A stretch of DNA of 10,785 nt from a virus (lineage: Duplodnaviria; Heunggongvirae; Uroviricota; Caudoviricetes), in IMG/VR virus record IMGVR_UViG_3300029647_000054, positions 1-10,785 of that record; one strand, written 5' to 3'. The position numbers and the translations under genes were made by a program. Shown here piece after piece: positions 43 through 10,128 of the stretch. The notes below the pieces were generated by a model. It was given only the letters and a program-made list of their open reading frames with translations, was not told the origin of the DNA and did not search any database. Numbering within the stretch: the stretch's first letter is position 1; each line of letters starts with the position of its first letter.

Positions 43-71
43 GGAAAAAACAAAACCCGCCGAAGCGGGTT
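43..71 (-). terminator. Rho-independent terminator at the 3' end of the hok transcript
   Basis: Inverted repeat 54-60 / 65-71 (AACCCGC / GCGGGTT) with 4-nt loop; on the minus strand the hairpin is followed by TTGTTTTTT (53-43); lies about 70 nt 3' of the hok stop. Confidence 0.55.
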
Positions 72-139
72 AAGTGCGGGTGCGTTGAGGATGCCTGACT
101 CATCAGAGGTGGCGAGGGATTTCTCCCTCGCCAGGTCTC

Positions 140-295
140 TTACTCCTCAGGTTCGTAAGCTGTGAAGACAGTGACCTCCGTCTGGCCGGTTCGGATTCGT
201 ACCTCGCAGAGGTCTTTCCTCGTTACCAGTGCCGTCACAATGACGGTAATACAGATGACGATCAGGGCGACTAACATCGCCTTTTGCTGCTTCAT
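140..295 (-). CDS. hok: Hok/Gef family type I toxin (51 aa, HokD/HokC-like small membrane toxin)
   Basis: In-frame internal ATG at 295 of the 70-aa track ORF; product MKQQKAMLVALIVICITVIVTALVTRKDLCEVRIRTGQTEVTVFTAYEPEE closely matches my recollection of HokD/HokC; SD AGGAG about 7 nt upstream; single TM helix. Confidence 0.85.
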   Translation of the reverse strand: MKQQKAMLVALIVICITVIVTALVTRKDLCEVRIRTGQTEVTVFTAYEPEE

Positions 296-352
296 AGCCT
301 GCTTCTCCTTGCCTTTCGGCGTGTAAGAGGCTAACCTACATGTGACTAGCAT
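140..352 (-). CDS. mok: Mok-like in-frame upstream reading frame that couples hok translation (70 aa)
   Basis: ATG at 352 in the same frame as hok, as recalled for chromosomal mokC/hokC pairs; existence as a separate regulatory frame is inferred from the hok/sok paradigm. Confidence 0.5.
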   Translation of the reverse strand: MLVTCRLASYTPKGKEKQAMKQQKAMLVALIVICITVIVTALVTRKDLCEVRIRTGQTEVTVFTAYEPEE

Positions 353-410
353 GAAATTGGCCTCAGATTAATGTTAAGCGTCCTGCAAGACGCATAATGT
401 TAACTGGGGC
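340..410 (+). ncRNA. sok: Putative Sok-like antisense RNA overlapping the mok start region (approximate)
   Basis: Inferred from hok/sok architecture only; candidate promoter TTGCCT (309-314) - 17 nt - TAACCT (332-337) on the plus strand; no clean terminator seen, ends not determined. Confidence 0.25.
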
Positions 411-510
411 TTTTCTCTGTCTGCCTTACGGTGGCATGCCCGAGGCAGACAGCCTCAAGCACCCGCAGCAATTCTACTTAACTCTCGCTTTACCGCAAAC
501 CGTTTTTACC

Positions 511-532
511 CGATATGGGAATTCCCATATCG
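511..532. repeat. Perfect 22-bp palindrome CGATATGGGAATTCCCATATCG
   Basis: Read directly: 11-nt arms exactly reverse-complementary with no spacer; not followed by a U-run on either strand. Confidence 0.8.
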
Positions 533-540
533 TAATGAAT

Positions 541-645
541 TCAGTTCCCTAGTCGATCCATCAAAAACACAACCAGGCAGTAAACACCCACAACAGCAAT
601 AACAGCCAGCGCACCTTCCATTGCCAGTGAGATATCATCCGACAC
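541..645 (-). CDS. Small hydrophobic peptide (34 aa, GTG start), single predicted TM helix
   Basis: Not in ORF track (too short). SD AAGGAGG 4 nt upstream of GTG at 645; product VSDDISLAMEGALAVIAVVGVYCLVVFLMDRLGN; start codon uncertain (alternative ATG at 621). Confidence 0.3.
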   Translation of the reverse strand: MSDDISLAMEGALAVIAVVGVYCLVVFLMDRLGN

Positions 646-680
646 ATTCCCTCCTTTGGTGTTAATCCCGGCGAACGCTT

Positions 681-764
681 TTACCCACACCGACAAATAA
701 CATATACTAAAAAAGCGATAGCCATAGCAACGCCTGTAATTGCAAATGCTTCAGGCCAGATCAT
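681..764 (-). CDS. Small hydrophobic peptide (27 aa), single predicted TM helix
   Basis: Not in ORF track. ATG at 764 overlaps the TGA of the upstream DUF551 gene (ATGA); strong SD GGAGG with 7-nt spacing; product MIWPEAFAITAVAMAIAFLVYVICRCG. Confidence 0.4.
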   Translation of the reverse strand: MIWPEAFAITGVAMAIAFLVYVICRCG

Positions 765-7265: not shown

Positions 7266-7766
7266 ATGAAAAGAAAACCCCTGTCAGAGATCGACCTGCA
7301 AGCCGCCCAGAGACTGAAAGAAATCTGGACGACGAAAAAAACTCAACTTGGGTTAACCCAAGAGCGTGCGGCAGAAATTCTGGGTTTTTCGACACAAGGG
7401 GCAGTAAGCCATTATCTAAATGGTCAGACACCTTTAAATCTAGAGGCTGTTATCAAGTTCGCTGGGTTGCTACAAGTTCCGCCTGAGTCAATTAGACCAG
7501 ATATGGCAGACTTGTTACGAATTGTAAGGATGTACCCCCAAGAACTGCAGCAGGATAATGTTGTCGCTTTACCCGCAGAGATGGAACAATCGGAAAACGA
7601 ACTTCCGTTTAATATAGAACCTATAGAGCGAGATTTGATCCAGACGTTCAGGGCTTTCCCAAAAGAAGACAAAGAGAAAATGCTTAAGGAAATGAAGGAG
7701 AAAAAAGAATCAATTGAAGAAACCGTTGCGCGGTGGCTAGAGGCGCAAAAAGGTCTTCGCGCCTAA
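7266..7766 (+). CDS. paaR: CI-like HTH repressor, regulator of the three-component TA module (PaaR-like, 166 aa); no S24 peptidase domain
   Basis: N-terminal HTH (LGLTQERAAEILGFSTQGAVSHYLNG); divergent from Cro-like gene; directly upstream of antitoxin-toxin pair; C-terminus too short and lacks a LexA-like autocleavage domain. Confidence 0.75.
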   Translation: MKRKPLSEIDLQAAQRLKEIWTTKKTQLGLTQERAAEILGFSTQGAVSHYLNGQTPLNLEAVIKFAGLLQVPPESIRPDMADLLRIVRMYPQELQQDNVVALPAEMEQSENELPFNIEPIERDLIQTFRAFPKEDKEKMLKEMKEKKESIEETVARWLEAQKGLRA

Positions 7767-7783
7767 TCTGAGGAGGTTAGAAC

Positions 7784-7975
7784 ATGAGTACAGTCCTTTC
7801 CCCGATAATTTCAGAATTTGAAACAATCGAACAAGAAAACAGCTATAACGAATGGTTACGCACCAAAGTGGCAGCAAGCCTCGCAGACCCCCGTCCTGCA
7901 ATTCCGCATGACGAAGTAATGGCTGAAATGGAAAACCTTATTGCGCAAATAGCTTCGACGAACAGGAGTGAGTAA
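7784..7975 (+). CDS. paaA: PaaA-like antitoxin (63 aa)
   Basis: 63-aa acidic protein immediately upstream of and overlapping (TAATG) the ParE toxin gene; matches my recollection of the PaaA2 antitoxin from E. coli O157 paaR2-paaA2-parE2; SD GAGGAGG at 8 nt. Confidence 0.7.
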   Translation: MSTVLSPIISEFETIEQENSYNEWLRTKVAASLADPRPAIPHDEVMAEMENLIAQIASTNRSE

Positions 7976-8265
7976 TGCTGCCCATTTTATGGCTACCTTC
8001 TGCGCGTGATGATTTGCGTCAGATCGTAGCCTATATTGCCAAGGAAAACCCTCCCGCTGCACGTAGACTAAAAATACGCATTGAAACATCAGTTTTGTCA
8101 CTTACTGAACACCCTTACCTGTATCCACCAAGCGAAAGAGCCCTAGGCCTTCGTGAGATAGTGACCCATCCTAACTACATAATACTTTACCGAGTAACAG
8201 CATCTAACATCGAGATCGTAAATGTAGTTCACTCACGAAGGCAGTATCCAAACAAAAGCTGTTAA
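7975..8265 (+). CDS. parE: ParE/RelE-superfamily toxin (ParE-like, 96 aa)
   Basis: Typical ParE sequence features (LPILWLPSARDDLRQIVAYI...EHPYLYPPSE...REIV); start overlaps antitoxin stop by 1 nt. Confidence 0.8.
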   Translation: MLPILWLPSARDDLRQIVAYIAKENPPAARRLKIRIETSVLSLTEHPYLYPPSERALGLREIVTHPNYIILYRVTASNIEIVNVVHSRRQYPNKSC

Positions 8266-9699: not shown

Positions 9700-9757
9700 C
9701 CATGTGTAGTATTTGGTGGCATCAGTTCTACTCCGTGACTGCTCTGCCACCCTTTTT
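9700..9757 (+). ncRNA. dicF: DicF-like small RNA (ftsZ-targeting sRNA family) with intrinsic terminator
   Basis: TTTGGTGGCATCAGTTCTACTCCGTGACTGCTCTGCCACCCTTTTT closely matches my recollection of K-12 DicF, with compensatory stem changes; sits directly upstream of dicB as in Qin. Confidence 0.7.
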
Positions 9758-9939: not shown

Positions 9940-10128
9940 ATGGAAACGTTATTACCAAACGTTAATACGTCTGAAGGTTGTTTTGATATTGGTGTTCTGC
10001 TCAGTAACCGGGAGTTTACGGAAGATGCCATTAAGATGAGAAAATATGAACCTTATCTTCTCAATGATAATTCCATACTTTCCAGAATTGCCCTTCTTGA
10101 ACTTGGTATTATCGGAGAACAGCAGTGA
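9940..10128 (+). CDS. dicB: Cell division inhibitor DicB (62 aa)
   Basis: N-terminal 35 residues (METLLPNVNTSEGCFDIGV...FTEDAI) closely match K-12 DicB as recalled; C-terminus diverges; SD GAGGA at 7 nt. Confidence 0.85.
   Translation: METLLPNVNTSEGCFDIGVLLSNREFTEDAIKMRKYEPYLLNDNSILSRIALLELGIIGEQQ

Follow-up and report, generated by a model that had tools for sequence, protein, structure and literature searches.

The hok/mok/sok (parB) system of R1 and the IncF plasmids is plasmid-borne, and its role there is post-segregational killing. Closed and open conformations of the R1 hok mRNA have been described. For R1 (PMC9841398), and partly for hokW-sokW (PMC8621323), it is known that 3' trimming slowly yields a truncated mRNA that can be translated, that RNase III cuts the duplex of Sok and mRNA, and that Hok is toxic. 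The latter system resides in a lambdoid prophage (Sakai prophage 5 and 933W-type Stx2 phages); experiments on the Sakai prophage 5 copy have covered the activity of the toxin, the RNA antitoxin (by Northern) and a sok mutant described as 'promoter-less' (PMC8621323, Takada et al. 2021). E. coli K-12 has hokC (gef)/mokC/sokC, which lies outside any prophage with IS186 adjoining it, and hokD (relF) in the cryptic prophage Qin. According to a passage of PMC12214031 that cites Pedersen & Gerdes 1999, the K-12 hok genes except hokB have been inactivated, either by IS elements, as for hokA, hokC and hokE, or through rearrangement of the genome.

Here we describe a hok locus on the minus strand of a 10,785-nucleotide stretch of phage DNA, referred to as the window. 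In all probability the locus (498..45) belongs to the hokD/hokW subtype of type I toxin-antitoxin modules and is a complete hok/mok/sok copy, apparently functional and most likely R1-like in its working. The module type is already known, and the window contains an ordinary copy of it in a lambda-like E. coli prophage. The original prediction was of a complete hok/mok locus whose leader is structured and which has 3' hairpins. It finds support in the Pfam and Rfam matches, in folding, in the conservation seen over 24 loci and in the RefSeq annotation as hokD. All features named there are present, but the stated end of 460 falls slightly short: the predicted mRNA starts at G464 and the putative promoter extends to 498. 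The features are as follows, in the order of the minus strand and then of the plus strand.

471..498, minus strand: putative hok promoter (-35 TTGCGG at 498..493, 16-nt spacer, -10 TAGAAT at 476..471, 6 nt before G464)
45..464, minus strand: predicted full-length hok mRNA of about 420 nt (BLAST homology from nt 1, G464, to the terminator, 29 loci)
453..464, minus strand: tac GGGUGCUUGAGG, mRNA 5' end (nt 1-12), predicted partner of fbi in the full-length mRNA and of ucb in the 3'-shortened mRNA
417..452, minus strand: leader hairpin (stem 417-425/444-452, with GGCATGCC in its apical part), matching the first hairpin of RF01794
404..412, minus strand: ucb AAGCCCCAG (anti-Shine-Dalgarno), predicted partner of the mok Shine-Dalgarno (SD) in the full-length mRNA and of tac in the shortened mRNA
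361..364, minus strand: mok SD GAGG, 8 nt before the mok AUG, invariant in 24 loci
140..352, minus strand: mok ORF of 70 codons, in frame with hok and with a common stop codon
327..331, minus strand: dcb GCCUC, predicted partner of the mok SD region once the mRNA is shortened
about 310..305, minus strand: hok SD AAGGAG
140..295, minus strand: hok toxin gene (295..140 in the ORF listing, 51 aa plus stop; Pfam PF01848; RefSeq HokD)
105..138, minus strand: 3' UTR hairpin (core 111-118/125-132) with conserved pairing
78..90, minus strand: fbi CCUCAACGCACCC, complementary to tac with one bulged C
45..71, minus strand: intrinsic terminator (7-bp stem, UUCG loop and U-tract; hairpin 71..54)
309..337, plus strand: putative sok promoter (-35 TTGCCT at 309-314, 17-nt spacer, -10 TAACCT at 332-337)
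344-420, plus strand: inferred Sok antisense RNA of about 77 nt, with ends from alignment to the annotated K-12 sokC

The Hok protein and the mok reading frame

The Hok protein matches Pfam HOK_GEF from end to end (E=2.7e-22, 78.5 bits); its matches to the NCBIfam Hok models fall below the model cut-offs. The gene had been called nearly identical to HokD/HokC, which agrees with identities of 94% to K-12 HokD (48/51 residues) and 84% to HokC. An identical protein, WP_052977210.1, is annotated as HokD in RefSeq. HokW of the Stx2 phage shares 86% of the residues and differs at the C-terminus, where it reads ...FVDYESEK against ...FTAYEPEE in the window. The Hok of an IncFII plasmid, which we take to be the R1 type as it matches the 52-aa R1 Hok sequence, is 41% identical.

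The in-frame Mok-like extension was found as described: the last 51 codons of the 70-aa ORF are Hok itself. The ORF has its own SD (GAGG) and is so placed that its translation could be coupled to that of hok. In hokW-sokW mok is likewise in frame at 70 aa, K-12 mokC is annotated in frame and with a common stop codon with hokC, and the R1/IncF system also has an in-frame mok, with the antisense RNA running across its start. An out-of-frame arrangement of mok and hok in R1 was also considered, but was dropped given the in-frame mok of the IncFII plasmid copy. Among the 24 aligned loci the mok start codon is kept in 23, whereas the frame varies: mok is in frame 0, or lies in the +1 frame as an ORF of 55-69 aa that overlaps hok, or has 19 codons and stops where hok starts. 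Because of this variation and of the in-frame IncFII copy, the in-frame mok is not a distinguishing trait of the window locus. Single-base indels in the mok-hok spacer are evidently tolerated, and the variation fits a Mok that would serve as a coupling device rather than as a protein with its own function. The frame differs even between close relatives (loci L013-L015, L029, L032 and L028; L018, L019, L052 and L054).

A separate observation concerns RNA editing. A-to-I editing that recodes position 46 to Cys has been reported for HokC, HokD and HokE, with hokD edited at 6% (PMC12214031). In the window the Tyr47 codon of Hok (UAC, 157..155, minus strand) is followed by G (UACG, 157..154), and TACGAA at this place is invariant in 24/24 aligned loci. 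Editing would change Tyr47 into Cys, in a protein that also has Cys15 and Cys30. A UACGAA at mRNA nt 264 was rejected as the editing motif, given that it is not a Tyr codon; the relevant site is the Tyr47 codon.

Elements of the hok mRNA and the predicted sok gene

G464 is taken as the 5' end of the mRNA because homology to 29 independent loci starts exactly there and all of them have a T-A-n-n-n-T hexamer 6 nt upstream. Among divergent loci, homology begins at this hexamer, at the position of the -10 box. In Stx2 phage I, the DNA preceding hokW has a near-identical promoter stretch. In a sigma-70 consensus scan both the hok and the sok promoter scored below the threshold and were not detected, in the case of hok because its -35 is weak; both are putative, with positions taken from homology and conservation. 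Folding of the full-length mRNA gives a minimum free energy (MFE) of -176.7 kcal/mol (z=-7.35 against shuffles).

Comparison with the Rfam hok/sok models and a search by folding for complementarity of the tac/fbi type between the 5' and 3' ends had both been proposed, and both turned out positive. The sole hok/sok model in Rfam, RF01794, matches at 464..290 on the minus strand over model positions 1-157, with 117.6 bits against a gathering score of 59. This model of 157 nt is named 'sok antitoxin', but its match lies on the hok-sense strand and spans the mRNA from the 5' end as far as the AUG of hok; it therefore in practice describes the hok leader and not the short antisense RNA. Strand calls taken from it would put Sok on the wrong strand; K-12 sokC is a 59-nt RNA on the opposite strand. 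In the RefSeq records examined, only the hok CDS is annotated: the leader at 296-464 of the window is without features, and mok and sok are unannotated for this subtype, as opposed to mokC and sokC in K-12.

Both hairpins that had been pointed out are present and larger than described. The leader stem 417-425/444-452 is a perfect 9-bp inverted repeat within a longer one (406-426/443-463); across 24 loci the hairpin is 89.5% paired, with compensatory changes at three pairs. The GGCATGCC palindrome at 433-440 does exist; as it recurs in just one of the other 23 aligned loci, it is rejected as a functional palindrome and looks incidental. The 3' stem 111-118/125-132 extends to 105-119/124-138 and is 87% paired across the 24 loci, with three compensatory pairs. 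It likely forms the 3' end of the processed, active mRNA; the analogous R1 hairpin shields the truncated mRNA (PMC9841398). The predicted terminator was also recovered, since the hairpin 71..54 with its U-tract is the sole terminator-like site in 1-900.

The conservation set comprised 24 non-identical loci from Escherichia species, Shigella, Kluyvera, Erwinia and two phages. Folding of the full-length mRNA predicts tac paired with fbi (12 bp with one bulge, in both MFE and centroid structures) and the mok SD region sequestered by ucb. When the mRNA is shortened back to the 3' hairpin (464..104), the MFE structure switches to tac-ucb and mok SD-dcb pairing. In silico, the two folds thus reproduce both conformations of the R1 model, and the predicted pairing register beats every slid control across the 24 loci. 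Tac itself is invariant or nearly so. Of the alignment cells, 97.9% are paired for tac-fbi, where the only changes are from G-C to G-U, and 99.4% for tac-ucb, in both cases with no compensatory pairs. The helix of ucb with the SD plus the Sok-target hairpin is 88.6% paired with five compensatory pairs, and all five SD-dcb pairs are invariant. Since the tac columns are almost invariant, covariation within the hokD/hokC set was discarded as proof of tac-fbi or tac-ucb pairing. The R1-type locus has a tac and an fbi that are unlike those of the window and yet complementary to each other; a change on both sides of the tac helix is visible only in this comparison.

The position of Sok, originally a surmise, was set by alignment to sokC and sokW, and for the window copy the transcript is a prediction. 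The RNA would begin with a 15-nt 5' tail, followed by a long hairpin (359-411) and then a U-rich tail; the hairpin is terminator-like, with a predicted fold of -30.3 kcal/mol (z=-4.7). The 5' tail and the loop at the mok start codon of the shortened, open mRNA are complementary. Compared with hokC and the Rfam consensus, the window subtype has about 18 extra nucleotides which extend the Sok/target hairpin; the hairpin of the 59-nt sokC is shorter. The putative sok promoter differs from the sokW probe YO-597 at 2 of 30 nt and has the same -10 (TAACCT) as hokW-sokW; comparison of primers YO-421/422 with the native phage sequence indicates that the 'promoter-less' sokW mutant was altered at this very TAACCTA.

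Overall, hokW-sokW closely resembles the window locus: the mRNAs are 89% identical from nt 1, whereas the sequence after fbi differs and hokW-sokW lacks the GC-hairpin terminator of the window. With the R1/IncF system the window shares the common architecture and the predicted folding pathway (tac/fbi, tac/ucb, SD/ucb and SD/dcb), although the leader hairpins differ in length.

For the window copy we infer every step of the mechanism, with transcripts, processing and toxicity included. A weak promoter would produce a stable mRNA of about 420 nt, in which tac-fbi pairing would free ucb to sequester the mok SD, and both ribosomes and Sok would be blocked. Slow 3' trimming to the 3' hairpin would remove fbi; tac would then pair with ucb, and the mok start region would refold into a hairpin with dcb. 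This open mRNA would be bound by the short-lived antisense Sok and destroyed or, once Sok is gone, be translated through mok, coupled to the membrane toxin Hok.

K-12 hokD and the relBE linkage

K-12 hokD is 96% identical at the DNA level from the hok SD through the coding sequence, 3' hairpin, fbi and terminator, but its alignment does not begin until mRNA nt 156 (the hok SD). It lacks nt 1-155, and with them tac, the leader hairpin, ucb, the SD and start of mok, dcb and the entire sok gene with its promoter. As a result fbi is kept as an orphan with no 5' partner, whereas the window copy has a complete leader. The relE stop codon lies 71 nt upstream of the K-12 gene, and the window is without K-12-type relBE. 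The relBE-hokD (relBEF) layout is therefore a derived, truncated state, and the rearrangement case in PMC12214031 corresponds to hokD. Among 57 species-representative loci, seven show relBE adjoining a hok whose homology begins at nt 156; the complete leader is found in 29.

The original prediction stated that, unlike in K-12, no relBE genes precede hok. This holds for the K-12 type: tblastn found no match to its RelB or RelE anywhere in the window, so that with a full leader present and relB-relE absent upstream, the relBEF layout is not found here. The contrast is real and has its explanation in K-12 hokD, a 5'-truncated remnant fused to relBE; the window copy is nothing special. In the strong form of 'no relBE at all' the statement fails. 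The window carries at 7266-8265 (plus strand), adjoining the immunity region, a type II module of the RelE/ParE superfamily, composed of an HTH_3 regulator (166 aa), a PaaA2 antitoxin (63 aa; PF21217; PDB 3ZBE/5CW7, E=1.7e-22) and a ParE2 toxin (96 aa; PDB 5CW7, E=5.7e-35). It is of the paaR2-paaA2-parE2 type known from O157:H7 prophages, and RefSeq labels relatives as RelB and RelE/ParE. What the window displays is an intact locus of the hokD type, and the textbook K-12 linkage of relBE and hokD is a truncation product.

Prophage context and possible roles

The window covers the early region of a lambdoid prophage, with DicF, divergent HTH regulators, YdaT, replication O/P-like and nin-type genes, the last three groups all on the minus strand. 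The hok locus lies at the end of the nin region. DicF sRNA (9701-9752, plus strand) matches Rfam RF00039 over its full length with 62 bits and is followed by a 62-aa ORF (9940-10128, plus strand) where related prophages annotate dicB; from these two the prophage can be classed as E. coli Qin/DicF-type. The DicF/dicB region is common to the window prophage and K-12 Qin, and relatives with the same 700 bp around hok have DUF968-family and antiterminator-like genes downstream, just as Qin has ydfU and ydfT. These 700 bp are 100% identical in at least five complete E. coli genomes, where the gene is annotated hokD. Of 5426 complete E. coli genomes, 2350 carry this leader type, and its location is almost always chromosomal. 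That hok terminates a long phage operon, as had been proposed, proved incorrect: in two genomes with the identical 700 bp further genes follow on the same strand (hypothetical, DUF968, RusA and DUF1133), and the operon appears to end only because the window does.

Two small features lie upstream of hok. A perfect 22-bp palindrome, CGATATGGGAATTCCCATATCG, is located at 511-532, 13 nt upstream of the hok -35; it has a U-tract on neither side and no counterpart at the equivalent position of Stx2 phage I. A protein might bind there, the RNA might form a hairpin that limits read-through, or the palindrome might mark a joint where mosaic segments recombined. Just upstream of hok there is also a small ORF (645..541, minus strand) with an AGGAGG SD, encoding 34 strongly hydrophobic residues (VSDDISLAMEGALAVIAVVGVYCLVVFLMDRLGN); RefSeq lists it as hypothetical protein WP_001278450.1 and it has no match in Pfam.

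Chromosomal hok loci tested earlier did not show post-segregational killing (bioRxiv 10.1101/2025.08.07.668861), and the biological role is uncertain for that reason; prophage retention, assistance of lysis after induction (as for hokW) and defence against other phages could all be candidates. The same tests, the K-12 genes hokA, hokC, hokD and hokE being regarded as inactivated (PMC12214031) and the weakness of both promoters by consensus would agree with a decayed, silent chromosomal remnant like the K-12 copies, in which killing or regulation was lost and the elements persist through recent descent. We consider this very improbable, given that every element lost by K-12 hokD is intact in the window copy, that neither an IS element nor a frameshift is seen at the locus, that the elements are conserved across genera with compensatory changes, and that the close homologue hokW-sokW is active (PMC8621323). 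An R1-like module in working order remains our preferred reading.

If the locus is functional, phage transcription might still be its main control instead of an R1-type decay race, with Hok as an auxiliary factor in lysis. Upon induction, transcripts of the early-right operon would then read through the locus, raise hok mRNA and silence the convergent sok promoter. This is conceivable since no terminator precedes hok and sok is convergent: in the scan of 1-900, the interval from the end of the upstream DUF551 gene (761) to hok was free of terminator-like sites. The locus also has the orientation of the early-right gene string in which it sits and which in relatives goes on downstream, and for hokW-sokW mitomycin C causes a RecA-dependent loss of sokW RNA, HokW production and a twofold greater phage release by an unexplained route (PMC8621323). 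On the other hand, a gene expressed purely by read-through would not need its own conserved promoter and the full R1-type set of switch elements, and the palindrome at 511-532 might impede read-through. On balance we see phage transcription as main control as a tentative alternative. Somewhat more doubtful is the specific proposal that the prophage position acts as functional wiring, in which antiterminated early-right read-through across the unterminated gap 760..465 would meet the convergent sok promoter, and so remove the antitoxin and add hok mRNA. A selected role in which abortive infection would protect the lysogen from other phages seems unlikely. R1 hok/sok lowers the plating of T4, as cited in PMC8621323, hok genes are about fourfold enriched in prophages, and this prophage carries PaaA2/ParE2 as a second toxin-antitoxin module; the survey that reported the enrichment, however, saw none for hok near defence systems (bioRxiv 10.1101/2025.08.07.668861).

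The value of the R1-like module described here is mainly for annotation: its mok and sok coordinates could be transferred to about 2350 complete E. coli genomes with the same leader type. Were the wiring true, it would explain the RecA-dependent trigger of hokW-sokW, and hok/sok would be an induction-timed helper of lysis and not an addiction module. More generally, a link to prophage induction, if shown, would explain the triggering of prophage hok/sok modules.
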